Of a DNA stretch of 64,000 nt, positions 3,941 through 62,444 are shown in pieces. The first letter of the stretch is position 1. Each line of letters opens with the position of its first letter. The position numbers and the translations under genes are program-made. The stretch spans positions 37,200,001 to 37,264,000 of the forward strand of contig OX597815.1 in the NCBI GenBank assembly GCA_951406725.2. The letters run 5' to 3'. The DNA comes from Octopus vulgaris (taxonomy: Eukaryota). The notes beneath the pieces were generated by a model, which worked only from the letters and a program-made list of their open reading frames with translations, had not been told where the DNA came from and searched no databases.

Positions 3941-4236
3941 ATTTACAAGATAAGGGCAAAACAAAAATTCTAATGCCAAATATGCCGAAAAAAAGACAAA
4001 AATTGTAAATAACCATTATAATTTATGCGTTTCGAAACAAACCGATAGAAATTTCTAAAAAATCCGTTATTACCGTATTGGTCCCAATTTGTCTTTTTTT
4101 CGGCATATTTGGCGTTAGAAATTTTCTTTTGCCCCTATCTTGTAAATTATTTATAAATTTAACCTTTAAGGGTATTTTTTGATATGCTGGCCATTGATAA
4201 AATTTTTTTCCCGAAAAAATTTTATCCTACATTAGT
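3937..4236. mobile_element. Foldback insert in (TA)n, PLE-type end structure
   Basis: 3937-4007 is the reverse complement of 4085-4150, with a one-sided tail to ~4236 and TA repeats at both ends. Confidence 0.6.
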
Positions 4237-4478
4237 TATATATATATATATATATATTACTGTTTGTATTTCTGTTCAGTTATAACAAAAACAATCGTAT
4301 ATTAATCTGGAGTATTGCTCCATACTGTTGTAGAGTACAGATTTAGTATTCTTTTACAAGAAACAGTAACTTCGAATTTTCAGCCGGCTAAGCCATCATC
4401 AGTCCGTTGATGCCCAGCGATTCTGAAACTGGAAGGACCATAATTATGAAACCTACTGCTTAACTACAGAGCAATATC

Positions 4479-4650
4479 TACATTATTTATATTTGACGGA
4501 TACGTGACCTCATCTTATTTGTTGTTTACACAACGTTTTGGCTGATACACTCCAGCCTTCATCAGGTGTCTTGGGGAAATTTCGATCCTGGGTTCTCATT
4601 CCTACGGTATTTTTCGATGTTGTTGTTATTATTATTATTATTATTATTGA

Positions 4651-4681
<31 letters not shown>

Positions 4682-4683
4682 GA

Positions 4684-4775
<92 letters not shown>

Positions 4776-4926
4776 CCACTGCTTGGAATCGAACTCGGAA
4801 TCTTGAAGTTAGTAGGCGGCGCTCTTAACCACTATGCCATACGCACGTGGGCCACGGGGCTACGGCATAGTGGTTAAGAGTGCGGGCTACTAACCTCAAG
4901 ATTCCGAGTTCGATTCCAAGCAGTGA

Positions 4927-5013
<87 letters not shown>

Positions 5014-5183
5014 CAACAACATCGAAAAATACCTTACGAATGAGAATACAGGTTCGAAATTTTCCCAAGACACCTGATGAATGCTAGAGGGTATATCAAC
5101 CGAAACGTTATTTTAACAGCAAACAAGATGAAGACAAGTACCTGTCAAATGTAAATAATTCCTCATTTCTTAAATGTAGAACT
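4479..5183. mobile_element. Head-to-head palindrome of a tRNA-headed, hammerhead-tailed SINE-like unit
   Basis: Axis at ~4851 (cgtgg-g-ccacg). Each arm outward has a tRNA-like head (A box GGCATAGTGG, B box GAGTTCGATTCC), then (AAT)n/(AAC)n, a ~50-nt spacer, a hammerhead motif (4528-4569 minus; 5070-5113 plus) and a tail. Confidence 0.85.
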
Positions 5184-5199
5184 TTTCATAGTTTGGTTT

Positions 5200-5430
5200 A
5201 TTCTTTTATTGTTGCATTTGTTGCAGTCATTTGACTACAGCCATGCTAGTAGACCGTCTGTAGTCGAACAAATCGACCCAGGTACTTATTCTACTGGGCT
5301 CCTTTGACGAACCGCTAAGTTACGGAGACGTAAATACACCAACATCGGTTGTCAAGCGATGGTAGGGGGATAAACACAGACACACAAACGTATACATGCA
5401 TATGTATGTATATATATATATACATACTTA

Positions 5431-5464
<34 letters not shown>

Positions 5465-6040
5465 ATAGAAATATGTTATAAAAAGAAAGGGGAAAGTAGG
5501 AAGAAAAATAAGCGAAAATGCACATTGGAAATCAAAAAAAGTAAAGGCTTTTTATGAAAAGCAACGATATATATATATACAATTAGATGAACTGAGGTAG
5601 GAATAAAAGTAATAAAAGTGATTATTGAGAATTGTTAAAGAGATTCAAAAGCATACCGTTTTCGTGAATTTACTAATCAATGCTTTGGTTAGTAAATTAA
5701 CTAATTAAAGCAATGATTAGTAAATTCACGAAACCGGTATGCATTTGAATCTCTGTAACAATTCACAATAATGACTTTTATTACTTTTATTACTACCTCA
5801 GTTCATATAATTGTATAAATCTATAGTTACATTTCATAAAAAGCCTTTACTTTTTTTTGATTTCCAATGTACATTTTCGCTTATTTTCCTTTTTACTTTC
5901 TCCTTATATATATATATATATATACAACGGGTTTCTTTCAGGTTCCGTCTACCAAATCTATTCCCAAGGCTTTGGTCGGCCCGAGGTTATAGAAAAAGAC
6001 AATTGCCCAAGGTGCCACGCAGTGGAACTGAACCCGGAAT
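5200..6040 (-). mobile_element. tRNA-derived SINE (23704 family) interrupted by a foldback insert
   Basis: 5200-5390 and 5925-6040 match the reverse complement of the 3' and 5' parts of 23704-24097. Its internal TA tract holds the 5464-5905 hairpin. Confidence 0.8.
5464..5905. mobile_element. Foldback (hairpin) element with paired hammerhead-like motifs
   Basis: ~5487-5690 is the reverse complement of ~5700-5905, with a tail at 5464-5486. Motif aaagca-ATGATTA-GT aaattc AC-GAA-ACCGGT-A-tgc lies at 5707-5745, mirrored at 5648-5686. Confidence 0.8.
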
Positions 6041-8869
6041 CATATTTCTTCATATTTATTTATACTTTTTATATTTTATTGCAGTTAGCGTTTATGCGTT
6101 TTATTGGAAAACCCAAGAGAAACACCTACTTAGAAGTCTCGGTTGGTATGTCAATCATCAAAACAAGCCAATGCTTTTATGCAATGAATTAAAAAGGAAA
6201 TGGCTGGAAATAAGTGGTGTGAATTTTTCATTGCTGCGAACAAATAGCACAAATTACTGGCAAGTATTATCAAGAACCTATAAATTATACAACTCAACTT
6301 AATCTCATGCGAAGCATAAACATTCTCATTGTTGGCTTTTCGTTTACTTGATTAAGATGGAGGTGCCTGCAAAGAATTAGCAATATTTTATACTGCAACA
6401 AAATTAAAACCTGAATCTACGTTTAACAGTTCAAAGTTTTATAGCGAATAAATTAACACTATACCCTCAGAAGATATTTCGCTAAAACTAGCTTTTATAG
6501 ATTTTCTAGCCTTCGTTACCAACAATACTAGTCCATTCATAGATTTTCATTGCAATATTTTCCTTAAAATGGAAGGAAAGCTGGAATTCTTCGTAATCTG
6601 CTTTGAACAATAACTGCCTTGATCTTATCATGCTGGGACTGCTTATAAAATACCACAGACGCTGTCCCTCCTTCCTTGACCATTTAATAAAATAAAAGAA
6701 AGCTTATGATATAGCATGTGATGTTGAAATTTCTTTCCAAGTCTTTGAATATCATCCCTATCTTAAATGTCATTTACGAAATCTTCAAAATTAAGAATGT
6801 CACACAAAGCAACATCCAATATATTCTTATCTGTGGACAGGGATAGTAAATAATCTGGTTTCTTTGGCTTTAGTGGAAAGTTGCAGATTTAACAGTCAAA
6901 AATTGTAATCGGATCATGTTTTATTTGGCGTAACGATTTTTTTGATTGCCACAACAATTTCTGCCACCAGACCTCTCTCCTCGAACAAATGGAGGCGGCC
7001 GTTAGTTAATATGTTTTCATGTGGAGATATATTGTACCGCCAATCTTGCATAGATTTCTCTATTCAAACACTAATGAGGATGTCTTTACGGAGTCACTCA
7101 AACAAATAGAAAATCAGCCAAATCTTAAAGTACACTTTATTATATTCAAAAATGAAGTGTACATTTGATAATATAGTCTTAGACAGATTATGTGAAAAAA
7201 GGTATTGTCACCGCATAAATGTTTTTAACTGCAGGTCTACTTCATGTTTGTACTCTTGGAACTTATAAAAATAACAACAAATGTCTTATTGCAATATTTA
7301 CGTAAACAATAAAGGCTAATATTTAGGGTACATTACAAAAGGTACAAATCTAAATACATTGAATTTATGTTTCGCGCAAAGCCTTTAACTCAGTTCAAAT
7401 TTTATCTGCAGCTTCCTTCTTACTACATGGAATCCACTCCAACTGTTAACCATGTCTAAAGTGTGTACCCATGATCTCTTCAAAAGTTTTTGTTATATCA
7501 TCATAGTTATTAGTATACCAGTATATTTGCTTAGGTGAACATAAAGATGTAAGATCTCGTAAACAACATTTTAAACTGCTAAATACTGTTAACCTATAAG
7601 AAAAATATGTTTTTCTTGTAAGGCGGCAAGTCTTGTGAATTTTGCATACACATAATACAATATTATTATATTATTATATTATGATGATGTTTTAACACAT
7701 TACATAGTACATTGATAGCCAAATCTATTAGAACTCCAAATTCGGCACTGAGTAGATAAAAACAGACGATTCAAAACTCTCAAGGTTTTCTTGGTAACAA
7801 TGCAACCCCAGAAGTTAGTACCTAGCTCTCAGAAACAAGGCTTTATGAATTTAAATAGCTCTAGGGGAGTTGGCTTTACTCCTAAGAACAACATGAAGTA
7901 CAAATTGCATGCTGTTAGGCAACAAAACTCTTAATACTAAAGTTCAAAATATGCAGGAGACGTTTACCTGAGAAATGCATCTATCATTTGGTTTATAAGG
8001 CATTATGGAACATAAAAACAAGAGTAGCATGAGTTAGGTTCAAAGAATGGTGAACATTTGCGATAGCAGAAAGTTTGTTCTGTGACTTAGACTCTGTTTC
8101 AGTAAATATGGATTCTATTGTTCGGTCATTAAAAGAAACTTAATTCTTTTGAAGTTAGATGCATACACAAACTTCTCGGCATCCTCTGGAATAACGTTGT
8201 ACCTAACAATCAAATCAGAGTGTAGTACGGATAACTTCAAATACGGGTAACTTCTCGTGACTGGTTTATTTTACATGTCTATCAATCCAATTGAACGCCG
8301 ACAAAAAAAAAAAACAAGTCTTTGAAAAGGTTAAGATGGATGACAAAGTCTAAGTAAGAAGAGTACAAGATACCTCACTCTGGAATATGTAACTTAAGGA
8401 ATGCATATTTATTAATAATTATCAAAATTCTGGCACTTTTAGTTTGTGGAATTAATCTAAAATTCACTAAGAATAAGAGGCGATTCGTAGAAGTAGATAA
8501 TAATGATGGAATAGTCTGATATTGTATGAAGCTCAGGTGTGAATTATTTCGCATCGCATTGATTGAATCGGAACAAGTTTTTTAAAAGTTTACTTCAAAA
8601 CTTTGAAAATTGGAAAATTTAGCTCCAAGCTACTCATTAAGAATATTTTGTTGAAGGAGAAGGAGGAAGAAGAGAAATGGAAAAGCATAGAAAATTAAAA
8701 TATAAAGAGAAAACAAGAAAATTGGGAAGAACATGCCAAAGAAGAAATTACGAACAAGAGTAGCAAAAGAACACAAGTACTAAAAGAAAGAAGAACATAG
8801 AAAAAGCAGTAATAGCTACTATATATGTTTTCATAATCTTCAATATTTATTGTTGTTACAATTATAAAG

Positions 8870-13310: not shown

Positions 13311-14030
13311 TTACATTTATTTCAGAAGTTTATATTGATGATGTTTCTTACGCTGCTAACAACGTTAGTAATTTAATATTCACGTTGTAAGCTATCTTAT
13401 TATAACATAATCACAATAATCTTTTTTAAACAATAGAGAACATAACTATAGCCGACCAGTGTGTTAAAAGAATTGCTTATTACCATTTGACACATTTACT
13501 ACACACAGCGTGTTTTATAGCTGCAGGTAATGAAGCGTATAAATTAGCTATTAAGTGTCTCAGAGTTACTGTCTTCAGCATCTTCGTATTCACATGTATT
13601 TTTACATTATAAAAAATGATAACGTGATAATTTGAAATTGAAGTTTATTTCGTATTATGCGCGAATAAACACAATTCTCTTTAAAAAAATGAATAAAACA
13701 AAGCAAAACACCAATTGAATTAAGACTATATTTTAACTATATCTATTGAATCAAAATATTGGAGTAAATTCCTTGCGGAAAATTGTTGTCGGTTTCAGCT
13801 ATTATTTGTGTTAGTCATGCCCACTTTCCAACCACTATCTAAAAAAAAATGTCAATGCTTTAACTTCGACTAAAAGAACTTTATACGTTGGTTAAAATAA
13901 TTTTCTTCTCGTTATTAATATATACGGCATCGTTCATTCACTTTATGTTGAGAAGTAAATTGAAACGCTTCATCTTAACATTTCAACGAACAAATGAATA
14001 AGTTAAGGCAAGATTTTTTATATGTATTCA

Positions 14031-14079
<49 letters not shown>

Positions 14080-14102
14080 TGATAATAATAATAATAATAA
14101 TG

Positions 14103-14148
<46 letters not shown>

Positions 14149-14168
14149 TGATAATAATAATAATAATG

Positions 14169-14217
<49 letters not shown>

Positions 14218-14360
14218 TAATAATAATAATAATAATAATGATAATAATAATAATAATAATGATGATAATAATAATAATAATAATAATGATAATAATAATA
14301 ATAATAATAATGATAATAATAATAATAATGATGATAATAATAATAATAATAATAATAATG

Positions 14361-14448
<88 letters not shown>

Positions 14449-14498
14449 TAATAATAATAATGATAATAATAATAATGATGATAATAATAATAATAATG

Positions 14499-14533
<35 letters not shown>
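14031..14533 (+). repeat. (AAT)n microsatellite with GAT variants
   Basis: About 500 bp of AAT/GAT triplets. Confidence 0.98.
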
Positions 14534-14534
<1 letters not shown>

Positions 14535-14700
14535 GACCAGATCCCTGGGAAAGCAATAATCTATAAAACTAAAAAAAAATTGTGTTGACATCAAGCGCCC
14601 ACATTCTCAGGAAGTTTCTCTCCATCTAATATATACGTGCCTTAGGTTTCCGGTTGTGACCCGGTCAGATGATGAAATAAAACGCAAATCAGTCGGAAGA
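14534..14700 (+). mobile_element. Extreme 3' end of an R4/Dong-type LINE in (TAA)n
   Basis: QIPGKAIIYK...IVLTSSAHILRKFLSI* matches the C-terminal motif in the 57720 fragments (TAHILRRTLS). Short 3' UTR then TAA/TGA repeats. Confidence 0.65.
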
Positions 14701-14804
14701 TAATAATGATGATGATAATAATAATAATGATGATGATGTTGATGATGATGATGATGATGATGATGATAATAATAATAATAATAATAATGATAATAATAAT
14801 AATC

Positions 14805-15317
14805 TTTTATACCAAGAGTGTTATCATGTACATTGGTTTGTCTTGGTATAAAAGATGGGCTACAGCAAATATCCTGCTCAATACCACAGATTTGCTTGTC
14901 AGTTGTTTGACCATAACCAGTTGAGCATGTCCCTTAGTGGCTGACGATATGAGCATCTCTGATCACGAGCAGAAGTAGTGGGGGAGCATCATAGCTTTGT
15001 GTTGAGAGGGATTCTTTGGGGTTTGAATAATTCACCTCTGGATACATGGTTGTTTCGTTCAACATCCTTAAACAACCCTTATTCAAGGTCTTTTTGAGCG
15101 GGATGGGTCACTTGACCAGAAGAAAATTCTAACTGGACCCCACCTGCAAGGTCATGTGCTGTTTATTTTGATATGAGATCACCATGTCGCGCACATATGG
15201 TTGTGATGCATGTGCCTAGTGTACCCTTATCAGACGGGTAGTCATGATGGGTATACTGGGCTTCGTATATTTTACCCCAGTGACAGTTTGTTGGCATGCA
15301 CTGCTCTCTCACTCAAT
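14805..15317 (+). mobile_element. Non-coding dispersed repeat associated with (TAA)n
   Basis: Reverse complement of 58499-59058, 59971-60530 and 61601-62160; ends ...ctctctcactcAAT. Confidence 0.8.
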
Positions 15318-15351
15318 CCTTTCTAGGCGCAGGAGTGGTTGTGTGGTAAGA

Positions 15352-38186: not shown

Positions 38187-40578
38187 CATTTATTTAATCT
38201 CATTCTATCACTTTCTCGTCTTTGTTTTCTCTTACTCTTTTCTCTTTTTGACCCCATTGCTTCCTTCCTTTCATTTTCTTTTTCGTTATAACCTGTAGCG
38301 CGTGCATTCTGAACTGTAGATTTTATCCACCAATGCATGAATAGCAACAATATTTTAAGAAGCCTAAAAGTTCCCGATATTCTAAATCTTTTATTTATTT
38401 CACATTTTCTTATTTACTTATTTTTAAATATTTTCTTTCTTTCGCTCTTCCAATATTTATAGCTTTATGATATATTATTTGAACATGCTCAGTGTTTTCA
38501 GTGAATGCCTTTCACCTTCCATCAGTACACCACCATTAACCATGACCCGTTCAATTCGATCGCATTGTATCCTTACTATTTCAATTTTAGCCAATCCCTG
38601 TTTCTTTTTTTTTATATTTTGTTTTAGTTCTTTACAGTGAACATTCTTAGTATCGGCATTCTACTTTATTTTTCAATTTTTTTCCTCCCGAAACCAGAAG
38701 AGTGAAATTCGGAGTTACGAATTATGAAATTTTAGATTCGAGTAATATATTATTATACTATTTCCAGCATCGACTATTCTCCTTTTTGTTTATACTTATC
38801 TTTTTGTATACACATTTAGTCTTCTTCTCAGAATAGTGCACCATAGTACACGGATATATACAACTGAAGATAGAACAGCATCTGTTAATTTTTATCACCA
38901 AGACTATGTTAACCATTTTCATGTAATAGAACCTAAAAGATTTAATTGAGAAAACTGAAAGGTTATTAAAAAAGGATGAATGCAAGCATACATCTTTAAC
39001 TGTGGAATACATAGGGCGAATATTAATAATTGATACAAAATCCAATCAAATCTCTGGAAAATACGTGAATATATTCAAAAAGTATCTGTTTAATTTCATA
39101 AGTATGTCATATTCCGGAAATTAAAGAACAGTTTCCAAATAATTTCCTAAATTCCTTAGCTAATTCAGAAATAGACATTTTGCTTCGGAAAACATTTATA
39201 TCTCTCTCAGTAGATAAACTGATCATAACTGCTTATTATCTCACAGCATCTTTACCATCTACAACAATCCGATGAAAATAGATATAACGCAATTTATTTA
39301 GAAGATAAAGATATTTCCATTGCACTTAAGTAGATGATCAAGTAGATTTCTTAGACACTCGTTCATTTTATAATATGCTTAAAGGTTATTTGTAGTTTTG
39401 CATGCCACGCTAAATATAGTCGAATCGAATGTATCAAAATAGATTTAAGTGTCGTCCTAGACTCTTACAATAATAACTTTACAAAGTTGTAGACTCCATC
39501 TCTGTTACATTTTGCTTGAAGTAGAATGTTTTTGAAATACCCATGGGGAATAAAACTTAAAGTTTACTCTGTTTCATAATGTGTATTTTTCATCTCCCCT
39601 TCACTAAGTCACTCAGTTTAGAATATATGACCTTGGATCACACAATCTTCACTCATCACTCAGACACTAACGTTATTTTGCGTGAAAGGAAATTAATTTT
39701 CCTTTTCAAAAATGCTATCTAGATAGAAAAAATGGTAAGAATTTGTTCGATGCGGTTACGGAAACCTTTCATAGGGTTAAAGCTTGTGAAATTATTGTTC
39801 GAAATAGTTTAGATAGATTTTTAGGCTGATCAAAGATTGCATAGGGATTTAGATTTAAAAATTGCAGCCGGTAACAATCTTTCAACCGTTTAGTCTTTTA
39901 TACCGCCTTAAAACCGAGCACTAGTAAATTTTTTCCCTTTACAATATGACTTACAAAATGTTGTATCATAAGTGTTTTAACCTTCTTCAAAATATATTTT
40001 CGAATCATAGCAACCATATTTTTTTGATATTTCTACAAATAAGTGAATATTAATATCGGAGACAATACACATACAAAATTTTAGCTTCAAAAGAACTAGA
40101 AAAAATATATAATATAATTCACTCTTAAGTCTGACTATTAGAATATATGGAGCCAAGGAATTCTTTGAGTTAGTCGCAATTCATTTTATTGGAACACAAA
40201 AAAGTAACAAAGACTGAAAACATTCTGTAAAAATATTGTTCTGTCGAAAAATATTTCCAGCTCTGACAACTCTATTAATGACAGCAACCTGAACTGAATA
40301 ATCGTATTAAAAAAAAAAATCTTACATTTGAGCGACAGCGAAGGAAGTTTAGATGGTATATTACTGACATAGATGGTGTTTGTAACCCAAATTAGAGATT
40401 TATGACAGTACATTCGAAAATATCAGAGAAACTAGTCATAATATTTTTAACTGTTCTTGGCAGACCAATACCTTGGTCTAGTTTTTGTTTCTTACCTGCT
40501 TATGAGCATGGTGAAAGTAGAGATAAATATATTATTCGAGGATGAAAAGAAAGAAAACTGCTGCGAAGAAAGATCTGT

Positions 40579-40952
40579 CTATCTTATTTGTTATTAACAC
40601 AACGTTTCGGTTGATATACCCTCCAGCCTACTTCAGGAGAAATTTCGAACCTGGGTTCTCATTCCTACGGTATTTTTAGTTGTTGTTGTTGTTGTTGTTG
40701 TTCGGGACACTGCTTGGAACCGAACTCGGAATCTTGGGGTTAGTAGCCCGCGCTCTTAACTACTGCGCCATATGCCCGTGGGCATCTGACGTAGTGGTTA
40801 AGGTTCGAAATTTCCACAAGACACCTGAAGAAGGCTGGAGGGTATATCAGCCGAAACGTTGTGTTAACAACAAACAAGATGAGGACAAATATCCGTCGAA
40901 TGTAAATAATGTAAATAATGTACATAATTTCTCATCTCTTAAATATAGAACT
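40579..40952. mobile_element. Second head-to-head palindrome of the tRNA-headed hammerhead SINE-like unit (right arm internally deleted)
   Basis: Left arm on the minus strand matches the 4479 unit. Axis atgccc-gt-gggcat at 40772-40785. The right arm jumps from gtggttaag to ggttcgaaattt, then has the hammerhead and the same tail (...ttaaatatagaact). Confidence 0.85.
40820..40865 (+). ncRNA. Intact minimal type-I hammerhead motif
   Basis: gacac-CTGAAGA-A-GGCTG gagggtatat CAGCC-GAA-ACGT-T-gtgtt. Confidence 0.8.
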
Positions 40953-41379
40953 GCAAGATCTGCCTGTGTTGTTCTTTGCACAGCATGACTTTTTACTCCG
41001 ATATTATAAATCAATTGAACCACCGTATCATGTTATCAAAGTTAAATTAAACGATATTTCCGATTACATTTTCGTTCACTACTAATTTCTTTAGATGTTT
41101 ACTTTTAATTTCCCACTTCCTGACAATGAGAGCAGTCGTTTTTATAACAAAAGAAGTTTTTCTGAGACGAAATATTACATCGAGTGACGTTCGACATTTG
41201 TACTTACAATGTAAATAATATAGACATCATTATTTTAATTTAATGTTGTTTCACGTGTTTATATTGAGTTAACTTCACCCTGCTTGCCTTCCGCACAAAT
41301 CAGTCGATTTCTATACTGGAACGAAAGTTTCGAAATAATTACTTCTGTACAAGCCGGGGTACCTAAACTTACAACAGTA

Positions 41380-41725
41380 AGACTTGCTGTTAAAGCAGTT
41401 ACTAAACAATTCAAGTGTGGACGTAATATATCTCAACTTAGCAAAAGCCTTTGATAAAATCGCCTATGGTATGATATGTCACAAACTGCCTGATCTCAGC
41501 ATAGTCGGAAAACTTGGAGAGTGGCAAGCCAACATTTTAAAAGATAGATGTCAGGCTGTGGCGGCCAATGGAGGCAACTCTGGGCAACACAGATAGTTAG
41601 TTGTGTTCTACAGGGCACTGTCTTGGGGCTATTGCTATTCATAGAGGCCATCTTAGATGTGCCCTCTACTGCTCAGCTACCCCTTCTTGCTAGCTATGCA
41701 GACGATACAAATGTCTCTCACAGGA
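41380..41725 (+). mobile_element. CR1-type LINE reverse transcriptase fragment
   Basis: VDVIYLNLAKAFDKI...LQGTVLGLLLF...ASYADDT, with a frameshift. Confidence 0.85.
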
Positions 41726-42576
41726 ATAGAACTATGGAGATGTTGCGCCGGTGGGGTTGGAATCACACAAAAGGCCATTGCGGTCACCTTTTATTTTTGC
41801 ACATTTCTGTACTATCCATAAAGTAATATTTGTTTAATCTTGTATATATGTGTGCATGTATGATACAGAACAAGGAATTTAGCACTTTTTTTATAGTTTT
41901 ATAAACTATAAATATGGCACTAAATATAAAATAAAAGAAAAAATAAAAGAAAAAAGTATATCGATTCATATCAGTACAACTACAAAGAAAATTGTGTCAA
42001 AGATCCCAATATCACCATTAAGATGCAGGTGGAGATATTACAACAGCTTGGCTTTCAAGGACTCACAAAAGCAAGTAAGATCTACATAGGGTGAATGCAA
42101 GTATCTTCAAAACATAACTGGATCTCCTCCTGTCAAGAGTTCCGGGTGGACCTATTTGGCGGCAGGAAACGCAGGTGAGGGCAGTGACATTAAACTCTCT
42201 CGATCACCAAATTTTACATATCAAGTTGTGAAAGGGAAACAAAACTAACAGTGGTACCCCAGCATGGCCGCAACTCTCAAGCAGTAACTGGTAAACGAAA
42301 TAAAAGAAAGAAATACATAGAAAAGAAATTGTTAAGGATAAGTAATATCTCATTCCTCCGGCTACGAAGAAAATAATTTTCAAATCACTATTTAAATATA
42401 ACACAAACTATAACTTAACCGAAATGATTTATGCTAATTGGTTGGTGGCTGGATTAGATATTATAAATATTTGCTCACAGCGGCGCGTTAGAAATACACC
42501 CTTGGGAGGGACATTACACTAATAATAATAATACACACACGCACTGTCTACCACTAAATTGCATGTCAATCGGTTA

Positions 42577-57559: not shown

Positions 57560-62444
<4,885 letters not shown>

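Follow-up and report, generated by a model that had tools for sequence, protein, structure and literature searches.

Inverted pLTRs, tails, palindromes at the junction and target-site duplications (TSDs) are published features of Penelope-like elements (PLEs) (PMC3846280; PMC8557442; PMC11167929), and how their inverted repeats and tails are formed is stated as open in PMC8557442. In the green anole element Poseidon_Ac, the protein PAc is described as cutting and extending both strands, with reverse transcription (RT) starting at two internal sites in the start of the ORF (PMC11167929). Animal PLEs can also carry minimal hammerheads, and dual motifs on opposite strands, 100-700 bp apart, were noted in 2014 (Cervera and De la Pena, PMC4209133). 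As for small-RNA-derived Pol III promoters, they are reported from the terminal repeats of the TRIMp3 elements, whose autonomous partners must, it is argued, use Pol II (PMC10886601).

A head-to-head insertion is analyzed here in a stretch of 64,000 nucleotides of Octopus vulgaris DNA (contig OX597815.1, positions 37,200,001 to 37,264,000), referred to below as the window. In our reading (probability of roughly 0.85), the locus is a single Penelope/Poseidon-type pLTR insertion whose mirror shape likely arose when both ends of the cut target primed separate cDNAs that were then joined back to back.

Organization of the insertion locus

Reading of the window places the exact insert at 40580-40954, with two arms lying head to head around a single axis. 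The features of this locus, together with the other copy in the window, are as follows.

4472..5184, no strand assigned: the window's second locus of this kind, its two full heads meeting at ~4852, with the short end on the left and the long end on the right
40570..40579, + strand: left TSD copy; at its empty site, run X16 has this sequence once
40580..40677, - strand: left-arm body, with the PLE ORF start codon at 40662-40660 and a broken hammerhead, ending at the TSD
40679..40701, - strand: (AAC)n microsatellite between left-arm head and body
40702..40777, - strand: tRNA-like head of the left arm, A box 40770-40760, B box 40725-40717
40778..40779, no strand assigned: palindrome axis, a 2-nt spacer; the surrounding 5-bp hairpin belongs to the PLE's own sequence immediately 5' of the head
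40780..40802, + strand: inverted head remnant of 23 nt with the A box only, joining body position 31 via a 2-nt microhomology
40801..40954, + strand: right arm, a 5'-truncated body with PLE ORF codons 5-55 (frame open 40803-40952) and a long 3' end
40820..40865, + strand: minimal type I hammerhead with an intact core and a helix III of the dimer type
40924..40954, + strand: one-sided PLE tail of ~31 nt, extending past the short-end repeat
40955..40964, + strand: right TSD copy, pairing with 40570-40579

The original prediction, made from the letters of the window, described a second head-to-head copy with its axis just 5' of a tRNA head, and the 2-nt spacer between the arms lies at that very place. 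It also described a right arm devoid of B box and microsatellite, which is what is found, since only 23 nt of head precede body position 31; this remnant is probably a snap-back copy. In the left arm, A box and B box each show one mismatch relative to the family majority. The tail is one-sided as described: the right arm runs to the long end at 40953/4, while the left arm goes no further than body position ~110, which is ~35 nt short of the usual short end of the family and atypical.

Both a TSD and an empty site can be found at this insert. The TSD is 10-11 bp long, with one mismatch between its two copies. In run X16, a contig of 3,382 nt (~92% alike in the flank) passes from the left TSD copy directly into the right flank, the duplication being present once, and contigs of runs X15 and X17 (97% alike) enter the insert; run X18 has no contig on this flank. 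The flanks of the two copies in the window, said to differ in the original prediction, could not be aligned in any of four orientations (1-kb flanks, best local scores 25-28), so that 40580-40954 is not a segmental duplication of 4472-5184. Taken together, the TSD, the empty site and the unrelated flanks identify 40580-40954 as one insertion.

At 4472-5184, a TSD was sought and none was found, and inverted similarity outside that locus is not significant (P 0.07). Beside it, two further short inverted-repeat elements can be recognized by eye at 3960-4140 and 5560-5880. A decayed fragment at 41400-41740 resembles, by eye, a CR1-type reverse transcriptase. The inverted-repeat scan of the whole window was dominated by microsatellites, and long low-complexity arrays occupy 14000-15320 and 58500-62100, in opposite orientation, ~45 kb apart and 91-93% complementary.

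Identity of the repeat unit

That the repeat unit is the pLTR of a coding PLE with a published architecture was overlooked in the original prediction. The upstream sequence common to 5 of 30 head-pattern loci encodes the end of a PLE protein, and a search with it gave 5,690 candidates and led to near-full-length copies. On the same strand, the ORF stop is followed ~45 nt on by the head in 10/10 loci from the GIY-end search (one of them the query) and in 9/10 from the P0007 search. At the other side of the unit, the tail runs in frame into the ORF start in 21/30 loci, and three contain complete ORF-head-body-ORF tandems. Because the ORF end adjoins the head and the tail continues into the ORF start, the unit is the pLTR of a Penelope/Poseidon-type retrotransposon together with its first ~55 codons, and not a stand-alone SINE. 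Two traits of PLEs are present, namely an inverted 5'-truncated copy at the 5' end, in 44 of the 71 loci sampled, and a pLTR made by partial tandems containing the ORF start. The Penelope/Poseidon clade label is a presumptive one, drawn from motifs.

The consensus ORF has 838 codons from an ATG inside the unit and is 75% identical to P0007. A reverse transcriptase domain is indicated by Pfam matches to RVT_1 on P0007 and on the copy L242. The C-terminus matches the Pfam-positive GIY-YIG profile of another PLE in the genome (probability 90.6, E 1.3e-6); a direct Pfam search for GIY-YIG in this C-terminus and a PDB search with its profile gave no match. No intact full-length copy was found, all those seen being decayed, and the longest open frame is 569 aa.

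Searches of proteins and of the Atlas that started from the 50-aa frame did not disclose the partner. The Neptune-like PLE families recovered by a genome search for Pfam GIY-YIG were considered as partners and rejected: they are younger and unrelated to the unit, and 50 loci share nothing with it except one chance copy. The PLE ORF is only 23-35% identical to these Neptune-like ORFs. One young Neptune-like family (L061:1245-3587; L062:1164-3506) has a 781-aa frame and many near-identical copies, and a pattern search disclosed no canonical hammerhead near it.

Two Octopus gene models, P0002 and P0003, start with the frame of the repeat and exit at the same point, the GT of the short-end repeat; they are likely exonized copies that use this GT as splice donor. 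Internally deleted derivatives of ~500 bp (L253, L254, L255, L258; 1300-2250) consist of body, ~240 nt of ORF start, head and body. As L253 and L255 share a breakpoint, a non-autonomous deleted family is likely.

The hammerhead motif

The intact hammerhead claimed at 40820-40865 is confirmed by its core, its stems I and II and the palindromic ACGU. Stem I is formed by 40820-24/40861-65, the core occupies 40825-31 and is followed by one extra A, stem II pairs 40833-37 with 40848-52, and GAAA lies at 40853-56, the predicted cut falling after 40860. Stems I and II are recovered in the MFE fold (z -1.56). The left-arm hammerhead is broken by an 8-nt deletion and a core change, and in the family the full core is kept in 64/203 copies, as counted by regular expression. 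Rfam, at gathering thresholds or at E up to 10, detected neither hammerhead nor tRNA, and RNA read ends do not pile up at the predicted cut site in three RNA runs, of unspecified strandedness, of a related organism. Cutting would need a dimer or a protein, and the hammerhead need not act in insertion. Two other PLE families harbor minimal hammerheads of their own (L075:1289-1400; L078:1661-1720), and L075 is also head-to-head.

Copy number, age and arrangement

The genome searched comprises 2.8 Gb in 227 contigs. Sixty evenly spaced stretches of 10 kb yielded twelve loci at E 1e-3 (14 with a looser threshold), a density of ~1 locus per 50 kb, i.e., roughly 30,000-100,000 loci genome-wide; at the protein level, a first-look search listed 36,838 candidates. 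Copies diverge from the consensus by 4.8% at non-CpG sites in samples that favor well-kept copies, and at the rate used in PMC13282606 the family would have a rough age of ~13 My.

Inverted loci account for 8/12 of the random sample, 17/29 of the head-query sample and 19/30 of the head-pattern sample, hence 44/71 overall. Solo copies, which had been considered as a possible majority, are not the prevailing form in these samples. Among 59 head-anchored loci, 6 have coding sequence upstream and 17 lack a visible second arm. Head-to-tail tandem arrays, by which non-LTR retrozymes are marked, were found in none of the 12 random-sample loci, and short tandems occur in the deleted derivatives only. 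In two pairs of loci, L211 with L213 (0.7 Mb apart) and L225 with L226 (0.12 Mb apart), both members lie on one contig and share an unusual junction; these pairs represent either later duplications or re-mobilized palindromes.

The tRNA-like head

The family head is closest to genomic tRNA-Arg, with 50/77 columns identical (z 8), this being the best of 17 distinct tRNA sequences that represent 6 isotypes. Its A and B boxes were identified against the usual box consensus. Octopus SINEs OR1 and OR2 are reported to be of tRNA-Arg origin. ARAGORN makes no tRNA call by default and calls the left-arm head under relaxed settings (-ps85).

At its 5' side, the unit stops at most 7 nt upstream of the head in 25/30 loci, none stops at 8-43 nt, and 5 continue into the ORF; such a sharp stop points to an RNA 5' end at this place. 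The sense strand of the 2,672-nt consensus contains no TTTT; for the ORF alone, 3.1 would be expected from shuffling synonymous codons (P 0.025) and 4.4 from shuffling bases (P 0.008). By comparison, 5 TTTT can be found in 12.4 kb of six single copies, and 9 and 8 in two Neptune-like ORFs of equal T content. This absence is a modest hint of Pol III, to be read with the family being Phe-poor like its relatives and with a consensus that would be cleaner than single copies. RNA reads from three runs of the related organism show no pile-up of starts or ends at the head and no discrete RNA in these data of unspecified strandedness; the 4,586-6,351 reads per run, from ~6% of each run, are even on both strands and mostly run into other flanks.

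It can be speculated, tentatively, that the terminal repeat of a coding retrotransposon acquired a tRNA-Arg gene and that Pol III transcribes the retrotransposon itself, hence the lack of TTTT over 2.7 kb, and that internal RT starts near the RNA 5' end gave rise to tens of thousands of SINE-like copies. If this doubtful reading were true, it would provide a route to SINEs without a separate master gene, together with a natural record of PLE inversions from two-ended priming. Were the head to drive the coding element, this would run counter to the view that Pol II is required by autonomous retroelements (PMC10886601), and part of the large "unclassified SINE" share reported for octopus genomes (PMC13282606) would be PLE-derived. 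In L177, L190 and L097, (AAT)n in the pLTR after the head is followed by other retroelement-like sequence, which suggests that this microsatellite is a target for microsatellite-seeking elements.

Formation of the palindromes

The 3' ends of the copies form two groups, at body positions 140-158 and 180-183, and the same loose ends recur among the RNA reads and the contigs. Pairs chosen independently of the tail comprise 42 long/short, 4 short/short and 1 long/long, with 10 unscorable; long/short pairs thus represent 42/47 of those scorable, against 23.4 expected (P 1e-8). TSDs of at least 8 bp, mostly 11-15 bp with one mismatch allowed, flank 48 of the 52 two-armed long/short pairs tested, compared with 10% of shuffled ones, and insertions carry duplications of 9-16 bp. 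Private alleles common to both arms occur at 0.91% of sites versus 0.33% in shuffled pairs, above all 2000 shuffles, and the subfamily site is concordant between arms in 36/44. The suggestion that the palindrome is made at insertion is borne out by these alleles and duplications, by the TSD and empty site described above and by the inverted state of most sampled loci. A comparison of arm-versus-arm with between-locus divergence, also suggested at the outset, is less telling: the arms differ by 8.5%, nearly as much as unrelated copies (9.2%), so that the shared-allele signal is small and later homogenization must have been slight.

The axis itself was examined in 224 exact palindromes and in 30 loci picked by a pattern requiring 10 nt on each side, a choice that selects intact axes and is blind to axis deletions after insertion. 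At 29 of these 30 loci, one arm has a head remnant of at most 31 nt, the remnants clustering at 10-31 nt, and then jumps to body or flank. Microhomology of at least 2 nt marks 9 of 13 measurable body junctions, versus 11% of simulated ones; a cruder first count was weak (mean 1.2 versus 0.65). With its 23-nt remnant and 2-nt overlap, 40580-40954 belongs to this short snap-back type. Of 37 informative pairs, 18 bear the tail on the arm with the full head and 19 on the truncated one.

The order of events that we propose is deduced from the end products. The RNA would begin ~2-7 nt before the tRNA-like head, whose A and B boxes probably direct its synthesis, and the PLE protein would make a staggered cut in both strands of the target. 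One target end would prime at the distal internal start site, giving the tail, and the other at the proximal site; the extension of both strands by PAc from two internal sites agrees with this. Priming near the RNA 5' end would yield a short cDNA running off at the head, which could account for the SINE-like excess of short copies. Owing to the native 5-bp hairpin, the cDNA end would snap back over 10-30 nt and then pair, through a microhomology of 2-4 nt, with either the target or the second cDNA, which is often truncated, the TSD then being made by fill-in. The atypical left end at ~110 in 40580-40954 and the lack of a TSD at 4472-5184 speak against priming from both ends, and trimming of a longer first cDNA by the endonuclease after second-strand synthesis could produce the tail pattern without two primings.

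If the structure were due to fold-back or self-priming only, a single cDNA, or an antisense template as proposed in PMC3846280, would be copied back with template jumps and its ends trimmed by the endonuclease. The native hairpin, the exact axis palindromes and the alleles common to both arms all fit such a course, and self-priming is favored by Arkhipova et al. in the account cited (PMC3846280). Yet the second arm keeps its 3' end while losing its 5' part, many pairs are without any remnant, and in 19/37 pairs the tail is absent from the full arm. Since a copy cannot add a tail that its template lacks, plain fold-back fails, and the pattern probably reflects two cDNAs, barring a later trimming of the first. 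Of the fold-back synthesis evoked in the original prediction, the short form does occur, and an origin of the whole structure by fold-back is improbable. Its further suggestion, that the palindrome is itself the mobile unit, was not upheld, and the version in which one arm later decays by deletion seems very unlikely to us: full palindromes do exist, as at 4472-5184, and two full heads are present in 3/42 long/short pairs, but they are found in only 1/30 axis-selected loci, the junction points differ at every locus, the remnants cluster in length and the TSD lies directly at the short left end of 40580-40954. Nothing was found in favor of segmental duplication or assembly artefact, which can be regarded as already refuted by the unrelated flanks, the TSD with its empty site and the similar axis-to-body joints in independent contigs.

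A more serious competitor, although we hold it to be doubtful, is that the short unit is a tRNA-derived SINE in its own right: Pol III would transcribe it from solo copies, the PLE would mobilize it in trans, and it would form lineages of its own. About 90% of heads are without an upstream ORF (6/59 head-anchored loci have one) and the 5' end is sharp, as would be expected of such a SINE; moreover, a full arm in non-native spacer orientation, present at 9/27 orientable axis loci, requires a palindrome-derived template or complete fold-back. However, the head is part of a coding element, the sites tested show the same alleles in ORF-linked copies as in short ones (6/27 versus 36/118, P 0.48), and the 11 body-less heads among 132 include no separate family combining the head with a different tail. 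Priming of separate cDNAs by both target ends is retained as our preferred reading, and a family of such high copy number is of value in this regard, as counts of the long/short rule, of the tail on either arm, of TSDs and of snap-back remnants can separate the models.

Comparison with known systems

No paper describing a tRNA-like head within the pLTR of a PLE was retrieved by the literature search; the family may be recorded in sources outside its reach, namely Repbase, Dfam, bioRxiv supplements and the Zenodo library of PMC13282606. A tRNA-Arg-like A/B-box head in the pLTR of a coding PLE, with a sharp 5' stop at this head and a TTTT-free sense strand, was likewise not found in print.

Like the octopus PLE, the octopus SINEs OR1, OR2 and OK (Ohshima and Okada, 1994) have a tRNA-derived head, that of the PLE being also closest to tRNA-Arg. 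OR1 and OR2 differ in being cited as CORE-SINEs. The TRIMp3 elements Cassandra, Helenus and Ajax (Kojima, 2024; PMC10886601) similarly contain a Pol III promoter derived from a small RNA in the terminal repeat, but they are described as non-coding LTR elements, whereas the element bearing the octopus head is a coding PLE. Animal non-LTR retrozymes (Li, Clavereau and Pollet, 2026; bioRxiv 10.64898/2026.07.22.740005) are also short hammerhead elements from PLE pLTRs; they form tandem arrays and their main text mentions no tRNA, in contrast to the dispersed inverted pairs of the octopus. The PLE hammerheads surveyed in PMC4209133 have in common with the octopus motif, as predicted from its sequence, the extra base between 9 and 10.1, G10.1-C11.1, a short helix I and the palindromic 15.2-16.2, although cephalopods do not figure in the passages cited.

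In Poseidon_Ac (Frangieh et al., 2024; PMC11167929), as in the octopus family, the hammerhead lies within the ORF; the tail is delimited by two internal RT start sites, and both strands are cut and extended, as would also be the case in the octopus. Its ORF starts at stem II, whereas the octopus ATG lies ~40 nt before the core, and the account cited reports no tRNA head. A likeness in structure may also be drawn with Pen2, Pen2a and Pen3a of Adineta vaga (Arkhipova et al., 2013; PMC3846280), which display an ORF of 838-842 aa with its first codons in the pLTR, an adjacent head-to-head inverted pLTR, a one-sided tail of 31 bp, TSDs of 8-10 bp, a palindrome at the inverted junction and solo pLTRs. 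They differ in the TATA/Inr-like motifs of their pLTR, for which that account describes no tRNA-like head, and in their tiny copy numbers compared with the ~30,000-100,000 octopus loci. Architecture and recurrence are ordinary for PLEs, and it is the tRNA-like head of the pLTR that is the unusual part.
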